38,265 nucleotides of DNA. Source: a virus (Duplodnaviria > Heunggongvirae > Uroviricota > Caudoviricetes). Under the pieces are notes generated by a model. It saw only the letters and a list, made by a program, of their open reading frames with translations, was not told where the DNA came from and did no database searches. The translations under genes and the position numbers were made by a program. Shown here piece by piece: positions 982 to 36,870 of this stretch (positions are counted from its first letter, which is position 1; every line of letters starts with the position of its first letter). The DNA lies in the IMG/VR virus record IMGVR_UViG_2917870735_000001, positions 1-38,265 of that record. One strand, written 5' to 3'.

Positions 982-3044
982 TAGATTGACTCCCCCATCT
1001 GAGCATCAGTCAATGCCTTGTGCCATATTCTGAAATTCCTGATATGACCAAATAAATGACGTAATCCGGCTGTAGTCTGGCCTCCAATACGGATAACTGC
1101 GGTGCTCTGAATACAGGACCATGTGGTTTTTGTTTCGCTGGATATACGCCCGTTACTTACTGCGCATGTAGACTGATCAGACTTTACACGCATCCCCATA
1201 ACCATTTTTTCAAGTGATGCATTTTCGTTTATCCGTCTGTTAGACCCACCAATATCGCAATAAGGAAATCCGTCGTAATCTGCTGAAGAACCGAAGCCAA
1301 GAATAATAGCCGCTCCGGTTTGATGACCGCCGGTATCAAAAACACGCGGTGCTGCATTTGGCGTTTTATACCAGTTCTTATGTACCTCACAAAGAACCGT
1401 AAAAGGAAGATTATAAAGATTATTCTTAATTGGGACTGTAACTATATCGCTTGCCCGTGTTACCGGTGCAGCCCCCGTAACAATAAAAGATGATGCGCCT
1501 GTACCAGCCTCAATCTGGGGAGTGGTTACATCGAGACAATCCCCTGATGCCACCATCTGACCTGTATCCGGAGAATACTGGACGAAACCACCAACCGTAT
1601 TTTCTGTTGTATCTGCTTTTAATGTAGCCTCAAAAAATATCCAGCCAGTTGCATCATCCTTAACAGACCTTGCTGTAACACGGCTTGTCTGGCCTGTCTT
1701 GCCAATTATGCGGGTGGTAAGGTTCAGGCTTGCTGCTCCTATTGATGTCCTTACATCCCCATCATAATGTTCAAATAAAATACGAACGGCGATATTATCA
1801 ACTTCACTTTTTACCCGACAGGATATAGTTACATACTTTTCGTCACCTGAAGTATCAACCCCTCCGGTACTTGAATACAGCCCTATAATGGTATGCGCTT
1901 TACTTGTGCCAACAATCGAATCCTGTACGACAAACCGGCCATAATTAAAACCGAAACTATCTGTGCCTGTTTCTGTAACGTCCAGTGAAGTTGACTTATT
2001 CCACTTCGAAGGGTCTGTACTGTTCGGGAAGAAGTTCGTTCTTTGCCCCTCAATAAGCAGGCCATCACGTTCAAATCGTGGCTCGTCAATGGCAGCCTCT
2101 GTCAGCACACCAGATTTATTAATGTAAGTTGCTTTTGATGCGCGTTTAAACTTTACAATCTTGTCGCCAGGCATTGTTATTTCATCGTCGCCAATAACAA
2201 TCTTTTTATATGACGGCGAAAAGCCCGTAATCATATCCAGTGAATCATTAAACGGAATCCAGACATCAGGCAGCGGCGGAACTATATTCACATATGGTTT
2301 TACAGCCACTTCCGCTGCAGCTTCTGCGCGGTCTGCCGCCGCTTCAGAACGTGTCGCCGCCGCGACGGCTTCATCCTTTTTCTGCCCGGCCTTTGTTGCC
2401 TCTGCTGCGGCCTCCTGCGCTTTTGTGGTGGCAGTTTCAGCCGCTGTTGTCGCTGATAATGCTTCACGACGTGCTGCGTCAGCATTTTCTGCAGATTTCT
2501 CCTCTGACGCCCGGGCATTAGTCTCTGAAAGTGATGCTGCTGTTGCTGCTTTTTCTGATGCTGTTTTAGAAGATGCAGCAGCTTTCTCGCTGTTGGCTGA
2601 ATTCGTCTCTGACGTTTTCGCCGCGTTCTTCGATGAAGCCGCTGCAGTTTCGGATTTCTTTGCCGCCGCTGCGCTCTGAGAGGCGGCTTCGGCGTTGCGT
2701 GCCGCTTCTTCCACCATTTCCTCAAAACGACGCAATGCCTCCGGCATGACATCATCTTCCGTCATGGCACCGAGAAAATCATTCAGCGTACCTGGTCTGG
2801 AACCTTCATAGACGGTAATGGTCCCGGCATGTGAAGGCGGAAAACCTTCAACCAGCAGGATAACGCTGTACTGGCCATACTCAACATCCATGCTGTAACG
2901 CCCGGCTTCATCCGGATTTTCAGAGGCCACCGTGTTCACCAGTACCGTGGTGCTGTTACGCTTTGCCTTCAGTTGAATAGTGCAGTTCTGTATTGGTTTT
3001 CCCGCACCATCTTTCAGCACACCTGAGATTTTTACTGCTGCCAT
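981..3044 (-). CDS. stf: side tail fibre protein (lambda Stf-like N-terminus, Ala/Ser-rich central repeats)
   Basis: N-terminus MAAVKISGVLKDGAGKPIQNCTIQLKA.. matches remembered lambda Stf N-terminus; ATG at 3044 (a GTG lies 6 nt upstream at 3050); long low-complexity A/S/T/E-rich collagen-like middle; position downstream of lom as in lambda. Confidence 0.85.
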   Translation of the reverse strand: MAAVKISGVLKDGAGKPIQNCTIQLKAKRNSTTVLVNTVASENPDEAGRYSMDVEYGQYSVILLVEGFPPSHAGTITVYEGSRPGTLNDFLGAMTEDDVMPEALRRFEEMVEEAARNAEAASQSAAAAKKSETAAASSKNAAKTSETNSANSEKAAASSKTASEKAATAASLSETNARASEEKSAENADAARREALSATTAAETATTKAQEAAAEATKAGQKKDEAVAAATRSEAAADRAEAAAEVAVKPYVNIVPPLPDVWIPFNDSLDMITGFSPSYKKIVIGDDEITMPGDKIVKFKRASKATYINKSGVLTEAAIDEPRFERDGLLIEGQRTNFFPNSTDPSKWNKSTSLDVTETGTDSFGFNYGRFVVQDSIVGTSKAHTIIGLYSSTGGVDTSGDEKYVTISCRVKSEVDNIAVRILFEHYDGDVRTSIGAASLNLTTRIIGKTGQTSRVTARSVKDDATGWIFFEATLKADTTENTVGGFVQYSPDTGQMVASGDCLDVTTPQIEAGTGASSFIVTGAAPVTRASDIVTVPIKNNLYNLPFTVLCEVHKNWYKTPNAAPRVFDTGGHQTGAAIILGFGSSADYDGFPYCDIGGSNRRINENASLEKMVMGMRVKSDQSTCAVSNGRISSETKTTWSCIQSTAVIRIGGQTTAGLRHLFGHIRNFRIWHKALTDAQMGESI

Positions 3045-3055
3045 ATCCACTCCAC

Positions 3056-3082
3056 AAAAAGGCCCGCCTGAACCGGCGGGCT
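3056..3082 (-). terminator. rho-independent terminator downstream of lom
   Basis: GC stem (cccgcc / ggcggg, about 7 bp) with a run of A on the plus strand at 3056..3060, i.e. T-run after the stem on the minus strand; 27 nt after the lom stop. Confidence 0.55.
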
Positions 3083-3108
3083 GTCATAACACTGTGTTAC
3101 CTGGCTAA

Positions 3109-3708
3109 TCAGAATTTATAACCGACACCCACGATGAAACCGTCAGTGCGCCAGTCGTCACTGCCGGAACCTTCATATGCAAGGTCAATGGCCACGGATT
3201 CGGTCGGGTTAAACTGCACACCCGCCCCCCACGCCAGAGACGTGTTGCTGTGGCGGTTGTCATCGCTTCCGGTCAGCACATCATGCATTTTCCCCTTGTT
3301 GTCGGTCACCTGAAGATAATCCCCGGAAAAAGTCGAAACACGGCTGTAAGCCACACCCGCCATCGCATAAGCACTGAACCATTCATTCACGCGTACAGAC
3401 GGCCCCGCCATCACGCTGAACCAGCGGTTACGCACTGAATCTTCATGCCAGCGGGTATCGCTGTAACGGGTAATCTGGCGATTCTTGTCTCCTGCATAGC
3501 TGAATGACGTCACCAGCCCCAGCGTGTCCGTAAATTCATAACGGTATTTCACGTTAATGCCCTTCAGGTCATCGTTGCCGGGCATATCAGTATGGGACTG
3601 AAGATACCCGCCGCTTAGTGTGGACTGATGCTCTGCTGCACTCGCTGGCGTACCAGCGGCGACCAGCCAGACTACTGCAGACAGAATAACAGCACATAAT
3701 TTACGCAT
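3109..3708 (-). CDS. lom: Lom/Ail-family outer membrane beta-barrel protein
   Basis: 199 aa with signal peptide ([24 protein letters not shown]) and C-terminal ..[25 protein letters not shown] identical in pattern to remembered lambda Lom; located between J and stf as in lambda. Confidence 0.9.
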
Positions 3709-26056: not shown

Positions 26057-26088
26057 AATACGCCCCTGCATGGGGCGTATTTTATTAA
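26057..26088 (+). terminator. rho-independent terminator after the KAP NTPase gene
   Basis: Perfect 10-bp stem aatacgcccc / ggggcgtatt with a 5-nt loop (26057..26081), followed by TTATT; overlaps the 3' end of Q on the other strand. Confidence 0.7.
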
Positions 26089-26450
26089 ACGTCCAAATCT
26101 AATGTTAGATCTAGCATGGAAAGGCAGCCATCAATAAATCCTTCGGCTAGCTGTATTTCTATACGTATCAATTTCTCATCCTTTCCACGCGCCTTTGCAA
26201 TCTTACGCTTGGATATTCTGTATAAATAATGTGCCACAAGAAGCGAATGCTCATAAGGTCTTTTTTGCTTTAGACGAGCAAGACAACCTTCAATAATTAA
26301 TGCATCACTATCCGAACAAGCCAAGCGTTTCTTGCTGGTATAGGGAAGAAGCCCTTTAAACCCAGCAGCTATAGGAGAATAGTCTACTCCTGAACTATCA
26401 CTCGCCGCCCATGCTCCCCAACGATCCAGAACCATCTGAATATCACGCAT
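26085..26450 (-). CDS. late-gene antiterminator Q-like protein
   Basis: About 121 aa from ATG 26450 (ORF track GTG at 26465); sequence MRDIQMVLDRWGAWAA.. resembles the Q-antiterminator family of phage-82-type prophages as I recall it; conserved position upstream of the lysis genes. Confidence 0.65.
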   Translation of the reverse strand: MRDIQMVLDRWGAWAASDSSGVDYSPIAAGFKGLLPYTSKKRLACSDSDALIIEGCLARLKQKRPYEHSLLVAHYLYRISKRKIAKARGKDEKLIRIEIQLAEGFIDGCLSMLDLTLDLDV

Positions 26451-26467
26451 CAACTTTCTCCACAAAA

Positions 26468-31690: not shown

Positions 31691-32383
31691 ATGAACATAG
31701 GAAACCGAGTCAGACAACTTCGCCAGGCGAAGAACATGAAAATCGCCGATCTTGCTGAAGCAATAGGAGTGGATGCGGCGAACATCTCACGTTTGGAAAC
31801 AGGCAAGCAGAAACAATTTACCGAACAAGCACTGAGCAATATTGCCAAGAGCTTAGGTGTTGATATTGCTGATCTCTTTACCATAGACATCAAAAGTAAT
31901 ACTGTATATAAAAACAGTATTAATGAGGATGTTACGCAGGTGAAGGATGTGTTCCGTATTGAAATGCTGGATGTCAGTGCCAGTGCGGGAAATGGCCTTA
32001 TCCAGGGCGGTGATGTCATTGATGTGATTCATGCCATCGAATACAGAACTGATAATGCTGTATCGATGTTTGGCGGACGACCAGCCAATCACATTAAAGT
32101 TATCAACGTTCGTGGAGACAGTATGTGTCCAACCATAGAGCCAGGAGATCTAATCTTCGTTGATGTCAGTATCAATCAGTTTGATGGAGATGGTATCTAT
32201 GTATTTGGTTTTGATGATAAAATTTACGTCAAACGACTGCAAATGATACCTGACAAATTGCTGGTGATTTCTGATAACCAGATTTACCGCGAATGGGGAA
32301 TTACCAGCGAAAATGAACACCGATTCATGGTCTTTGGAAAGGTCTTAATCAGCCAGTCACAAACCCTTAAGCGACACAATTAA
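31691..32383 (+). CDS. cI: CI-type repressor (HTH_XRE plus S24 LexA-like autopeptidase domain)
   Basis: 230 aa; N-terminal HTH (..MKIADLAEAIGVDAANISRLETGKQ..), C-terminal S24 domain with Ser motif (..VRGDSMCPTIEPGDLIFVD..) and Lys (..YVKRL..); divergent from cro-like gene. Confidence 0.9.
   Translation: MNIGNRVRQLRQAKNMKIADLAEAIGVDAANISRLETGKQKQFTEQALSNIAKSLGVDIADLFTIDIKSNTVYKNSINEDVTQVKDVFRIEMLDVSASAGNGLIQGGDVIDVIHAIEYRTDNAVSMFGGRPANHIKVINVRGDSMCPTIEPGDLIFVDVSINQFDGDGIYVFGFDDKIYVKRLQMIPDKLLVISDNQIYREWGITSENEHRFMVFGKVLISQSQTLKRHN
31900..31919. promoter_or_regulatory. SOS-box-like palindrome TACTGTATATAAAAACAGTA inside the cI coding sequence
   Basis: Matches the LexA box consensus TACTG(TA)5CAGTA at 18 of 20 positions, with both CTGT/ACAG arms and TA flanks intact; lies in the linker-coding part of cI. 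Confidence 0.4.
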
Positions 32384-32402
32384 CCCCACATCCCCATCAT
32401 TT

Positions 32403-32427
32403 AGCCACTAGAAGGTGGCTTTTCATT
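32403..32427 (+). terminator. terminator-like hairpin downstream of cI
   Basis: Stem agccac / gtggct (6 bp) with 6-nt loop followed by TTTTCATT; 20 nt after cI stop. Confidence 0.5.
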
Positions 32428-32436
32428 GCCCACAAC

Positions 32437-32490
32437 ATTGCACATTACGCAATAAAATACTTGCACAGCACGCAATTTAATTTTATCTTT
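32437..32490 (+). promoter_or_regulatory. second operator cluster (OL-like) with candidate rightward early promoter
   Basis: Same half-sites as OR: ATTGC..GCAAT (32437..32453) and TTGCA..CGCAA (32461..32475); candidate -35 TTGCAC (32461..32466) and AT-rich -10 around 32481..32490. Confidence 0.35.
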
Positions 32491-32941
32491 CTTTCCAGAC
32501 CAACAAACAAGGTCCTAACAAAATTTGGTTGTAACACGGCGTATGGCACATGCGTCATTAGCGGTCTGGAGACGTTAAAGGGGACAATCCACTCCTTGCT
32601 CGGGCAAACAAACCAGGTAGCCGGAATGTGCAAGTCAATGATGATGCTGACAAGACGCCTAACCAGCGTGGCGATTCGGTTTGACGCCTGGGAAGAGACC
32701 AGGGTGCAACGATAAGAGCATTTATGGAGCCGCAACAAAGTGTGGTGCCGTAACGGGCTAAGTGCTCTCAGCGTTGTGGTAATCCGCGAAATGGCGCGGC
32801 GGTAAGTATGGCGGGGTTACTCTTTCCCCGTTGAGGACACCGGGTTGTCAGGCTGACCATACGCCTGAGTGACAACCCCGCCACAACAGCCACTGCCTTG
32901 GCGGTATCAGTTTGTACCATTGCTTCCGGCTGGTACCGCTC

Positions 32942-33040
32942 TTTTTACAAAACAGAGAAGAGCATCACCGGACGACGGGCTCATAACCCAATCCATCCGG
33001 GCGGCTACTACCGCAGGTGTTCTTCTCTGTTTTGTGGAGA
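32942..33040. repeat. long inverted repeat: perfect 15-bp arms ACAAAACAGAGAAGA / TCTTCTCTGTTTTGT separated by 59 bp
   Basis: Arms at 32947..32961 and 33021..33035, extendable with G-U/A-U pairs to about 20 bp (32942..33040); lies in an ORF-poor leader upstream of the early-left genes. Confidence 0.5.
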
Positions 33041-33160
33041 AACTAACCGCCCCTGCGGGGGCATCTATTGAAACGTAATTGACTCAATAATCGCCGGATG
33101 GCGAGGGCTTCCTTTTCCCAAAATTCAGCGCGGTGCAGCGCATATAAAGTGGAGAACGAA

Positions 33161-33697
33161 ATGTCATTTATTAAAACTTTTTCCGGGAAGCATTTTTATT
33201 ATGACAAGATAAATAAAGACGACATCGTTATTAACGATATCGCGGTTTCCCTTTCAAATATCTGTCGCTTTGCTGGTCATCTTTCACACTTCTACAGCGT
33301 TGCCCAACATGCGGTGCTTTGCAGCCAGCTGGTACCGGAGGAGTTTGCTTTTGAAGCGTTAATGCATGATGCAACAGAAGCGTATTGCCAGGACGTCCCC
33401 GCACCACTGAAACGCCTTCTTCCTGACTATAAACGGATGGAAGAAAAAATAGACACCGTAATCCGTGAGAAATACGGGTTACCCCCGGTTATGAGTACGC
33501 CCGTGAAATATGCCGATCTCATCATGCTGGCAACCGAACGCCGCGATCTCGGGCTTGATGATGGCTCTTTCTGGCCTGTACTGGAAGGCATCTCGGCAAC
33601 AGAGATGTTCAAAGTGATTTCACTGGCACCGGGCCATGCCTACGGGATGTTTATGGAACGCTTCAACGAGTTATCGGAGTTACGCAAATGCGCATAA
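33161..33697 (+). CDS. HD-domain phosphohydrolase (YfbR-like 5'-deoxynucleotidase family)
   Basis: ATG at 33161 with GGAGA RBS; H..HD signature (..HAVLCSQLV..ALMHDATEAYCQDVPAPLKRLL..) parallels the remembered E. coli YfbR pattern (..YHDASEVLTGDLPTPVK..). Confidence 0.65.
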   Translation: MSFIKTFSGKHFYYDKINKDDIVINDIAVSLSNICRFAGHLSHFYSVAQHAVLCSQLVPEEFAFEALMHDATEAYCQDVPAPLKRLLPDYKRMEEKIDTVIREKYGLPPVMSTPVKYADLIMLATERRDLGLDDGSFWPVLEGISATEMFKVISLAPGHAYGMFMERFNELSELRKCA

Positions 33698-35089: not shown

Positions 35090-35322
35090 TACGTAGTAGT
35101 TCAGATGTGAGCTAACACATCTATGGCACAGAGCTAAACCTAATCAGACTGTCTACTCTGTGCCTAAAGTGGATGTTGCAAATACCACCAGCGAAGAACC
35201 AAAATTAATGGTGCAGGATGATGCAGATAATTCTGATGAAAACACCCAGAATTTGTTACAATAAGTACATAGCATTAAAGTTTGTTATGAATGTCTAAAT
35301 GTAGCTTAATTCAGAGGTGATA

Positions 35323-36870
35323 ATGGGTGCCAATGGTTTACTAGCAGTCTTCGCCATACTTATTGCTTGGTATACTCTCTTAACGGATGAGAGACGTGTT
35401 GATTTAAGGTTACGCATATCTAAAATTAATATTATATTCATTATCTTTTTTATATCAACAATCTTAACAATTATATATTCTAAGGTATTGCTAAGTATTT
35501 TTCCGATAAAACCGATCCCTTGGATACTCGGTTTTAACGAAGATACATTGGCTTTTACTTGTCTTTGTATCATAATTACATTTTTTGGAATTAAAGTACT
35601 GGGCAAAAGACTACCAAAAGCAAACCTTACCTGTTGGATCAGCGTTTCAGAAATGTATCTGCGCGCAAAAAAAATAGAACAACTGGGATATCTTTTTGAT
35701 AAATATCACGAACAGCTATTTAATATAATTAGTAATAAAAAATGGTATGTTCGCGTACATAATTACTTAGTCCCTTCATTATCTTCCATTATAATGGATA
35801 AAGAGAAGGCAAAAAAAATACGATTCAAAAAAGCTAGAAAATTTCTGTCAAAGTTTTTCCCTTATGAAGACAAAAGACAAAATGCTATTCAATTAAATAT
35901 ATCCAATCTTCTGAAATCAAAGGTTTTTTCACATTATTTAATTGATACTTACCCTCACGTAGCTATGAAGGCCACCTGCTTACAGCTTAGATATAATTAT
36001 GAGTATAATACAAATTTCTTTACGTATTTAATATCTAACCCAAACAGCATTATGTATAGGGAGTTACGAGACAACCAAAATCGTTCATATACAGGGGAGT
36101 ATGCACTCGACGAAAGTAATGCCTTGCTTAATTTTTATTTAAATGATATTCGTATGGCGATAAATTTAGAAATATGGAAACCTGTGGGTGATTATGTCAT
36201 TAGCTACATAAAAAAACAAAAAGGGAGTTCTTGCTTTTACAATCATCCAGATAATTACTATTCAAGTAGTGATGAGCGTTGGGAATGCCCAATCTTCGTT
36301 GGATTGACGTTTTTCGATGTTATGGTATCTACAGCAATATTCAAACGCTCAAAAAACAATATGTGGCTCATGTATTATCGTTTTTTCCTAAAGGAAATTC
36401 TTGAGAGCTATGAAAAATCTAGCAGCATAGATATAAATAGAGAGTTCCCCATGCGATTTGATTATTTAATATATGAGCTAATCAGCCGTTGTAATATATG
36501 GGTAGGTGCAACAGAACACCTCAATTATGATAACTGGACAACAGAAGAGAAAGAGCAATCCCCAGAGTTCTTTGCCTCTACAACCTTGGGGGAAATGATG
36601 TATCTGATTATTACTTCAGAAAAAATGCATAACAATCAAAAGACATATCTTTTAGAAATCATTATTCAAAGAATGAACTCTCTTGATCAAAACAAGAAAC
36701 CTGCTTACTCCAAGGAAATCTTCAACAATCTTATCCGAGCATTCTCCCCTACTTCCATTGATATAAATGCAGTAAATAAATTACGGCAACTTTATAAAGG
36801 TGTTGATCATGTTCTAAAAAACAAAAATTCAACTTTTGAAGTTGAACTATCAAAATATCTTGACCAATAA
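35323..36870 (+). CDS. AT-rich membrane-anchored protein of unknown function (3 predicted N-terminal TM helices plus about 400-aa soluble domain)
   Basis: ATG at 35323 with AGAGGTGA RBS (ORF track GTG at 35317); GC content far below the prophage average; hydrophobic segments about residues 5-22, 36-58, 70-92; no recognisable catalytic motif; located between xis-like gene and integrase, convergent with int. Confidence 0.7.
   Translation: MGANGLLAVFAILIAWYTLLTDERRVDLRLRISKINIIFIIFFISTILTIIYSKVLLSIFPIKPIPWILGFNEDTLAFTCLCIIITFFGIKVLGKRLPKANLTCWISVSEMYLRAKKIEQLGYLFDKYHEQLFNIISNKKWYVRVHNYLVPSLSSIIMDKEKAKKIRFKKARKFLSKFFPYEDKRQNAIQLNISNLLKSKVFSHYLIDTYPHVAMKATCLQLRYNYEYNTNFFTYLISNPNSIMYRELRDNQNRSYTGEYALDESNALLNFYLNDIRMAINLEIWKPVGDYVISYIKKQKGSSCFYNHPDNYYSSSDERWECPIFVGLTFFDVMVSTAIFKRSKNNMWLMYYRFFLKEILESYEKSSSIDINREFPMRFDYLIYELISRCNIWVGATEHLNYDNWTTEEKEQSPEFFASTTLGEMMYLIITSEKMHNNQKTYLLEIIIQRMNSLDQNKKPAYSKEIFNNLIRAFSPTSIDINAVNKLRQLYKGVDHVLKNKNSTFEVELSKYLDQ

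Follow-up and report, generated by a model that had tools for sequence, protein, structure and literature searches.

A covarying three-way-junction RNA at the 3' end of the early-left leader of N-less lambdoid prophages

The stretch of DNA analysed here (the window hereafter) is the IMG/VR virus record IMGVR_UViG_2917870735_000001, 38,265 nucleotides (nt) assigned to the Caudoviricetes, and corresponds to a lambdoid prophage in reverse orientation. The element in question is a long inverted repeat in the untranslated leader of its early-left operon, between the repressor region and the first early-left gene (Table 1). The operator repeats that follow the cI-like gene are accompanied by a putative early-left promoter (pL), with a -35 box TTGCAC, a 17-nt spacer and a -10 box TATCTT, from which transcription would start near 32497; judging from its sequence, the region 32438–32490 would be the pL that drives the leader. 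Within the leader the open reading frames (ORFs) are short, the length of the region differs among relatives by non-multiples of 3, and 391 nt of it (32720–33110) fold with a z-score of -6.5. It is also a mosaic in which separate stretches match separate phages, the matches spanning either the block 32517–33060 or single modules only. The leader or parts of it were found in cdtI, 2H10, Ayreon, mEp460, Stx2c, some Stx2a phages, SfII, SfV, SfIV, and ST64B, and the portion corresponding to the element (32941–33047) matches alone in Salmonella phages. No N gene was found here or in the relatives examined.

A preliminary description of this DNA, made from the sequence alone, had pointed to a perfect 15-bp inverted repeat with a 59-bp spacer, very unlikely by chance, with a pairing extended by wobble pairs to about 20 bp. 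The repeat was recovered exactly as described: ACAAAACAGAGAAGA (32947–32961) and TCTTCTCTGTTTTGT (33021–33035) are exact reverse complements separated by 59 nt. There is no other perfect inverted repeat of at least 12 nt with a spacer of up to 100 nt in the whole window, and a 15-mer inverted repeat was present in 0 of 300 first-order Markov simulations (analytic expectation 0.0036), so that its improbability also stands. The extension by wobble pairing was right in kind and too short in extent, as the predicted RNA fold is an uninterrupted helix of 25 bp, including five G·U pairs, between 32942–32966 and 33016–33040. The 59-nt spacer folds into two hairpins (A and B), which together with the 25-bp stem make a three-way junction with one-nucleotide linkers, and the 183 nt between 32893 and 33075 reach -81.8 kcal/mol (z = -7.1 against dinucleotide shuffles). 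This junction is the last large structure of the pL leader, at its 3' end.

Table 1. Coordinates of the features discussed, in positions of the window.
Feature	Positions	Strand	Remarks
Q antiterminator	26085–26465	-	With structural and lysis genes on the minus strand; CII-like and replication genes alongside
cI-like repressor	31691–32383	+	Peptidase_S24 and helix-turn-helix domains (Pfam)
cI terminator-like site	32403–32420		Terminator scan
Operator repeats and putative pL	32438–32490	+	Direct-repeat family D3; TTGCACATTACGCAA, TTGCACAGCACGCAA
pL leader, untranslated, structured	32497–33160	+	About 660 nt, from putative pL start to first gene
Terminator-like hairpin T0	32900–32946	+	13-bp stem (32900–32912 / 32928–32940), then C and UUUUU (32942–32946)
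Basal stem, 5' arm	32942–32966	+	Holds the 15-mer 32947–32961; fold and covariation (helix 1)
Hairpin A	32968–33000	+	Lower stem, asymmetric internal loop, GGG/CCC helix, 7-nt loop; fold
Hairpin B	33001–33014	+	4-bp stem GCGG/CCGC, 6-nt loop; fold
Basal stem, 3' arm	33016–33040	+	Holds the 15-mer 33021–33035; fold and covariation
Tail GGAGAAAC	33036–33043	+	Conserved; in nearly all variants listed (alignment)
Hairpin C	33049–33062	+	GCCCC UGCG GGGGC; predicted fold
First early-left gene, YfbR-like HD-domain 5'-deoxynucleotidase	33161–33697	+	Weak Pfam match
Second early-left gene, PAPS-reductase-like	33688–34566		Matches SspD and DndC defence-system models
517-aa ORF	35317–36870		AT-rich (29–36% GC); between candidate xis and integrase-sized ORF

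The top of hairpin A is a GGG/CCC helix (32977–32979 / 32987–32989) that closes the loop CUCAUAA (32980–32986). Hairpin B differs in sequence and length among relatives, with inserts of up to about 27 nt, and its stem is kept. The first five bases of the tail GGAGAAAC (GGAGA, 33036–33040) pair with the U-tract of the terminator-like hairpin T0. Hairpin C of the relatives is a small GC hairpin that most often has YUGCAG as its loop and lies directly 5' of the ribosome-binding site of the first gene; phage matches stop at 33060 and the inter-phage homology ends just past it. The terminator scan gave no qualifying T-run on the plus strand after hairpin C. The long hairpin was likewise discarded as an intrinsic terminator, as there is no T-run past 33040 and the plus-strand scan lists nothing for it. 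A kissing interaction between the loops of hairpins B and C was also considered and rejected, CUGC-GCAG pairs being found in the commonest variant without covariation. No site complementary to the loop was detected elsewhere in the window; for RNA target prediction in the transcriptomes of E. coli, Shigella, and Salmonella, the sequence named as query is CUCAUAACCCAAUCC.

In an alignment of 38 diverse copies, the pairs of the proposed structure were counted, and standard pairs occupied 95.4% of the cells, compared to 41–50% when the partners were slid by one to three columns. Both sides had changed in 11 of the 34 pairs tested, and none of 500 shuffles reached the observed values. It is evident how the long stem alternates between C-G and A-U (20 and 14 sequences), G-C and C-G (24 and 14), or A-U and G-C, and three of the four pairs of hairpin B (helix 3) also show changes on both sides. 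When the 38 copies were folded separately the same junction was obtained in almost all of them, with a median basal stem of 25 bp. G·U combinations (70 cells) exceeded A·C ones (16 cells), and the core of hairpin A is oriented with the operon both in the pL leaders and between Q and holin genes (see below); because of this G·U excess and the direction of the operon, the RNA of the plus strand is favoured. The preliminary description had proposed, among others, a long regulatory or processing RNA stem, to be abandoned if close homologues lost complementarity without compensatory changes. Such loss was not seen, pairing being kept by compensatory changes on the sense strand of the pL operon, and we conclude that the element is a structure of the pL sense transcript, existing at the RNA level and under selection.

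Two other proposals of the same description were of a DNA-level element, either the half-sites of a dimeric DNA-binding protein or the terminal repeats of a miniature mobile element, to which a cruciform could be added. All that speaks for them is the perfect 15-bp symmetry of this one copy, and the evidence contradicts them, leaving a negligible probability. Complementarity is conserved, not the sequence of the arms (CAGAG/CTCTG becomes CACAC/GTGTG), the G·U positions are conserved, and the most conserved sequence lies in the 59-bp spacer. The arms of the window are not exact half-sites because five of the pairs are G·U, which do not exist in duplex DNA. A miniature inverted-repeat transposable element (MITE) would be expected as dispersed copies. 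Instead, the covariance model finds one copy in the 38 kb (next best hit at E ~1), and 2,810 of 5,426 complete E. coli genomes contain the element at a median of one and a maximum of five copies, almost all chromosomal and, at every locus inspected, occupying one and the same place in the leader of a prophage. The flanks of 32942 and 33040, GCTC and AACT (...CCGCTC and AACTAACC...), contain no direct repeat, and no target-site duplication could be recognized.

The defective K-12 prophage e14 carries a copy of the element directly upstream of xisE, and the viable phage LLS a complete one, followed by a yfdP-family gene. Scanning at the species level with the core of hairpin A gave 59 hits, with about 69 calculated for chance, and the covariance model found the full-length element (~100–129 bits) in 22 of these 59 loci, 21 of them titled Enterobacterales and one titled Chryseobacterium. 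The genera include Escherichia, Shigella, Citrobacter, Enterobacter, Kosakonia, Klebsiella, Leclercia, Mixta, Phytobacter, Erwinia, and Buttiauxella. Among the core-scan hits, the surrounding structure was seen only in Enterobacterales and in one metagenome-assembled genome (MAG) of Acidobacteriaceae. The non-enterobacterial core hits were also considered as possible tRNA-Met genes, and ARAGORN found no tRNA at those matches.

In the survey of downstream genes the element is always the last feature before the first ORF, whichever this is. The next gene, within 9–130 nt, is of the YfdP family (by annotation), an RdgC (Pfam), an HD-domain protein, or Xis (xisE in e14), showing that the element belongs to the leader and not to a particular downstream gene. 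Annotated hypothetical genes overlap the structured leader RNA in several records: e14 ymfH (2832–3143 of locus L129), SfII_35, cdtI orf40, and mEp460 gp36 and gp37. That the region encodes such proteins, or a minus-strand MSPS peptide, could be argued from these annotations, present on either strand, and from the complement of the anticodon-like loop of hairpin A, which reads AUG after a Shine-Dalgarno-like sequence. The element lengths (111, 112, 113, 114, 115, 134, 137, and 138 nt) break any reading frame, opposite strands are annotated in different records, and in the reverse complements that we read the MSPS frame ends after 9, 12, or 25 codons depending on the copy. The paired compensatory changes fit RNA, not codons. 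Coding is thus, like the DNA-level alternatives, close to excluded, with hardly any probability left to it; the proteins annotated over the element are probably misannotations, and our literature search on ymfH returned nothing relevant.

Just upstream, T0 has the appearance of an intrinsic terminator. A GC-rich hairpin ending 0–3 nt before a T-run is present in 81 of the 93 distinct upstream variants, the U-run after these hairpins has five to seven U, and the T0 stem covaries in sequence between species. It was not listed by the consensus terminator scan; its loop is about 15 nt and the scan admits 3–8. The T0 U-tract (32942–32946) is at the same time the first five nucleotides of the 25-bp stem, and since the U-run forms the base of the stem, only a transcript that continues beyond T0 can form the complete helix.

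For processing by E. coli RNase III, roughly two helical turns of double-stranded RNA (dsRNA) are required, and the known substrates of this enzyme include the lambda N leader, lambda sib, the T7 early mRNAs, and the DicF precursor. Taking about 20 bp or more of largely uninterrupted dsRNA as the length of such a substrate, the helix has 25 bp in the window and the same figure as median over the 38 relatives. We read the repeat as the basal helix of a conserved cis-encoded RNA module at the 3' end of the pL leader in lambdoid prophages that lack N (those of the SfV, e14, ST64B, cdtI, or LLS kind) and tentatively, with rather less than even confidence, as a processing site for RNase III. In transcripts reading past T0, its U-tract and the next 20 nt would pair with the 3' arm into ~25 bp of dsRNA, or two and a half turns. 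Cleavage by RNase III would sever the 440-nt structured leader from the coding mRNA, would free the region formed by GGAGAAAC, hairpin C, and the ribosome-binding site, and would release the top of the junction, hairpins A and B, as a tRNA-sized RNA. The conserved hairpin A would be the part specifically recognized by some factor.

Several observations weigh against this reading. The proposed RNase III site is deduced from the length of the helix alone, and many relatives have one to three single mismatches in the stem. In Mixta the element comes directly after the promoter, without T0, so that coupling to T0 is not obligatory. Folding energy says little about the strand, the plus strand being more stable than the minus in only 25 of the 38 copies. 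Finally, processing does not explain the strong conservation of hairpin A, for which a second function is needed.

In hairpin A, the 14 consecutive nucleotides CGGGCUCAUAACCC (32976–32989) match without any difference the anticodon stem-loop of E. coli tRNA-fMet, with its three G-C pairs and the CUCAUAA loop; the tRNA sequence was confirmed in each of the 5,426 E. coli genomes. An alternative is that the top of the junction mimics the anticodon arm of the initiator tRNA and binds or titrates a factor, such as an anticodon nuclease of the VapC type, methionyl-tRNA synthetase (MetRS), or the 30S P site with initiation factor 3 (IF3), and that it is expressed from both the pL and the late pR' leaders, the long stem serving for stability or excision only. 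The probability that the 14-nt identity arose by chance was estimated at ~1e-4 to 1e-3. Most core-containing sequences were gathered by searching for the core itself. Among 121 copies recruited solely through their 3' arm, and so independently of the core, 106 have the exact 18-nt core, and it survives where all else differs (Klebsiella and Raoultella late leaders and the Acidobacteriaceae MAG). Salmonella and Shigella VapC cut the tRNA-fMet anticodon stem-loop, and structures resembling this stem-loop were cut by every VapC tested (PMC7180214). SfV, SfII, and ST64B have Shigella and Salmonella as hosts. On the other side, the match covers only the loop and the uppermost 3 bp and does not extend to the two lower pairs of the stem, and CAU is missing in some copies, which have UUAAUAA (e14), CUUAUAA, or CCCUAA. 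In one variant the short helix is kept as GUG/CAC, with a G-C to U-A change. We consider such mimicry unlikely as the main role of the element, although attractive because this very arm is cut by the VapC toxins.

A bolder version would have the temperate phages of Enterobacterales carrying an initiator-tRNA anticodon-arm decoy in both the early-left and the late leaders, which would be excised, by RNase III from the long stem in the pL leaders and by tRNA-processing enzymes in the tRNA arrays of late leaders, and would then protect or re-programme translation initiation. This decoy could soak up a tRNA-fMet-specific anticodon nuclease (VapC) or engage MetRS or the 30S P site. It appears quite improbable to us, and if true phages would possess an RNA-based counter-defence or host-takeover device that has no described counterpart among them.

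Between Q and holin in Raoultella and Klebsiella phages, hairpin A is found within a three-way junction with an outer stem of 7–9 bp, often directly after tRNA genes and six nt past one in the Klebsiella type. The long stem is specific to the pL version and, because the late-leader copies carry hairpin A on the 7–9 bp stem, may be an add-on for excision. Copies in tRNA arrays might be released by tRNA-processing enzymes instead, which would explain why the long stem is needed only in the pL version.

An example of the Klebsiella type is phage GZ7, where a diverged junction copy (1509–1574 of locus L004) follows a tRNA gene by six nt, downstream of Q. Similar loci are L022, L024, L049, L053, L059, L063, L073, L091, and L113. 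The outer stem is here GGCCTG/CAGGCC followed by R-CCA, resembling the 3' end of a tRNA, and the copy was called as a tRNA neither by the ARAGORN-based annotation nor by the Rfam tRNA model. In the Acidobacteriaceae MAG (locus L201, 2542–2640, minus strand, 40 bits with the covariance model), the core is surrounded by two stems, of 9 and 12 bp, that are perfectly nested. An 83-aa ORF follows directly and a glucosaminidase-like gene is close by; this is the only convincing copy outside Enterobacterales. In the window itself, ARAGORN detected no tRNA or tmRNA gene, and the Rfam tRNA model had no hit at the element.

The absence of N from these phages also brings to mind a further explanation, namely that the element forms, alone or together with other sequences, a put-like RNA of the processive antitermination or anti-Rho type that would let the polymerase read the leader and the operon without N. 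Early antitermination by RNA alone is known only from HK022 (PMC9378689), and for LLS, whose early antitermination mechanism was described in 2025 as unknown, a put-like one was suggested (PMC12315714). In keeping with this, the element is found in the two leaders that are antiterminated in lambda (pL and pR'), and there are terminator-like hairpins in the leader. Its place downstream of T0 means, however, that it cannot act on T0. The put RNAs suppress pausing and termination through binding to the zinc-binding domain of the polymerase beta-prime subunit. The features of HK022 put used for comparison were two stem-loops of ~70 nt, a conserved 5' duplex AGACG/CGUCU, and copies past both early promoters. 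Here, the leader lacks the pattern AGACG-N7-CGTCT and has no convincing similarity to putL or putR (locally, putL aligns with it at a weak score of 22 at best, compared to 52 between putL and putR), the covariance model found no second copy in the window that could stand for a pR-side site, and no strong plus-strand terminator was found downstream in the pL operon. Besides, another module of the same leader is a better candidate for an antiterminator. All this makes a put-like role of the element fairly improbable.

This second conserved structured module (32770–32890) is located ~165–200 nt upstream of hairpin A and has the arrangement GTTGTGG...CCGCGAAATGGCGCGGCGGTAAGTATGGC...CACCGGGTTGTCAGGYTGACCATACGCCTGAGTGACAAC...CCACAAC, with a possible pseudoknot, seen by eye, between UAUGG and CCAUA inside the GGGUUGUCA/UGACAACCC loop. 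It was present in at least 136 of the phage or prophage loci fetched, 35 of which also have the three-way junction, and the leader of the ban operon of phage P1 also contains it, just past the C1-controlled promoter. It had no Rfam hit, and we regard it as a candidate early-leader regulatory or antiterminator RNA. In the LLS leader (locus L333, 1195–1330) a further terminator-like hairpin with its U-run, followed by a long-range stem GCACAAC...GUUGUGG, was recognized by eye, which suggests that such leaders are built of repeated units of a terminator and a stem-closed module. The preceding segment of the window (32720–32779) is 93–95% identical to phiV10, TL-2011b, and related phages, and the matching place in O157 typing phage 10 is annotated as tRNA-Arg, yet ARAGORN finds no tRNA in the window.

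The proximity to the first gene raises the question of whether translation or mRNA stability is the target. The tail GGAGAAAC and hairpin C would be held in fixed geometry next to the ribosome-binding site, possibly with the participation of a short (G/A)UG GAG AAA frame (33034–33078 in the window) that starts in the 3' arm in most copies. The element ends 9–66 nt before the start codon in many relatives, and in some copies, as read by us, this frame ends at or overlaps the main start codon (an AUGA overlap). In the window, by contrast, the first start codon is 120 nt away (33161), the short frame lacks a Shine-Dalgarno sequence and has its start buried in the stem, its length and stop position are not conserved, and the downstream genes are unrelated to one another. 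Control of the first gene is thus a doubtful explanation to which we give little weight.

Regarding these downstream genes, the first one scores 24 bits with its Pfam model, just under the curated cut-off of 25.9 bits, and the genes at the same position in relatives are annotated as deoxyribonucleoside 5' monophosphate phosphatase. The second, with an SspD match at E = 7e-15, may have a DNA-modification or anti-defence function, judging from these homologies. Next come a gene for a small helix-turn-helix protein, possibly Xis, the 517-aa ORF, which had neither Pfam nor PADLOC matches and looks like a moron, and an integrase-sized ORF at the right end of the window. On the other side of pL, a related NC-SV prophage carries the small RNA (sRNA) svsR, 58% identical to e14 co293, where its cI gene ends (PMC12803456). 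The corresponding region here is the end of cI and its terminator-like site (within 32300–32420).

The element falls outside every described family that was compared: MITE, put, nut or boxA, tRNA, intrinsic terminator, retron, and every Rfam model. Rfam 15 gave no hits in the window at the gathering threshold, only chance-level hits between 32350 and 33250 at E up to 10, and only tRNAs in five related loci. The boxA consensus GYTCTTTAANA (PMC5725501) was unmatched in 32400–33200 even with one mismatch; GCTCTTTTTAC differs from it at 3 of 11 positions and relatives vary in the GYTC part. A retron msr-msd was discarded, as a reverse transcriptase domain was present in none of the ten neighbouring proteins tested, a subset of the ORFs of the window. 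None of the published prophage sRNAs considered is this element, since svsR lies at the 3' end of cI, co293 at another locus of e14, and Pas, AsxR, and AgvB in late regions. What it does share with known systems is the length of an RNase III substrate and, as a resemblance in sequence, the tRNA-fMet anticodon arm, and only these.

N-less lambdoid phages (SfV, e14, ST64B, cdtI, some Stx phages, and LLS) are common. Their leader is a mosaic of conserved structured RNA modules that are unlisted in RNA databases and annotated as hypothetical proteins, e14 ymfH being one case, a recurrent misannotation that is corrected here. Being present in about half of the complete E. coli genomes, supported by covariation, and bearing a copy of the initiator-tRNA anticodon arm that recurs in early and late leaders, the element offers a testable handle on early gene control, and possibly on translation-directed manipulation of the host, in N-less prophages. 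Should it be only an RNase III processing hairpin, it would be an ordinary feature of phage early transcripts.

Comparison with known systems can start from tRNA-fMet, from which the element differs in lacking a D arm, a T-loop, and an acceptor end, and in having an asymmetric internal loop in the place of the lower stem; a known tRNA anticodon-arm mimic is the thrS operator. The putL and putR sites of HK022, itself an N-less lambdoid phage, are likewise cis-acting structured RNAs of the early leader and also have two adjacent hairpins. Here there is in addition a 25-bp enclosing stem, with one copy per phage, which follows the nearest terminator-like hairpin instead of preceding it. In Qin, a defective lambdoid prophage, the small RNA DicF is part of the immunity-region operon transcript, from which RNase III and RNase E free it; for the present element, the liberation of a small RNA is only inferred. 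Rfam, which we take to include DicF, matched neither the window nor the P1 locus annotated with a 'dicF-like region'. In the rrn leader, boxA precedes an RNase III stem that brackets 16S rRNA, and here a U-rich boxA-like stretch, GCUCUUUUUACAA, is found at the 5' foot of the long helix, although it departs from the boxA consensus (GYTCTTTAANA; PMC5725501) and its GYUC part is not conserved in relatives.

The best-supported reading is that of a structured cis element in a phage operon leader that would work most like an RNase III leader hairpin. It differs from the phage hairpins of this class (the lambda N-leader site, sib, and the T7 R sites) in having no sequence similarity to them, in the three-way junction with a sequence-conserved arm, absent from those hairpins, and in that the host phages have no N. 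It resembles them in the long near-perfect helix of an early transcript, placed between the leader and the first coding region, and it resembles sib also in that the full helix exists only in transcripts that have read through a terminator.

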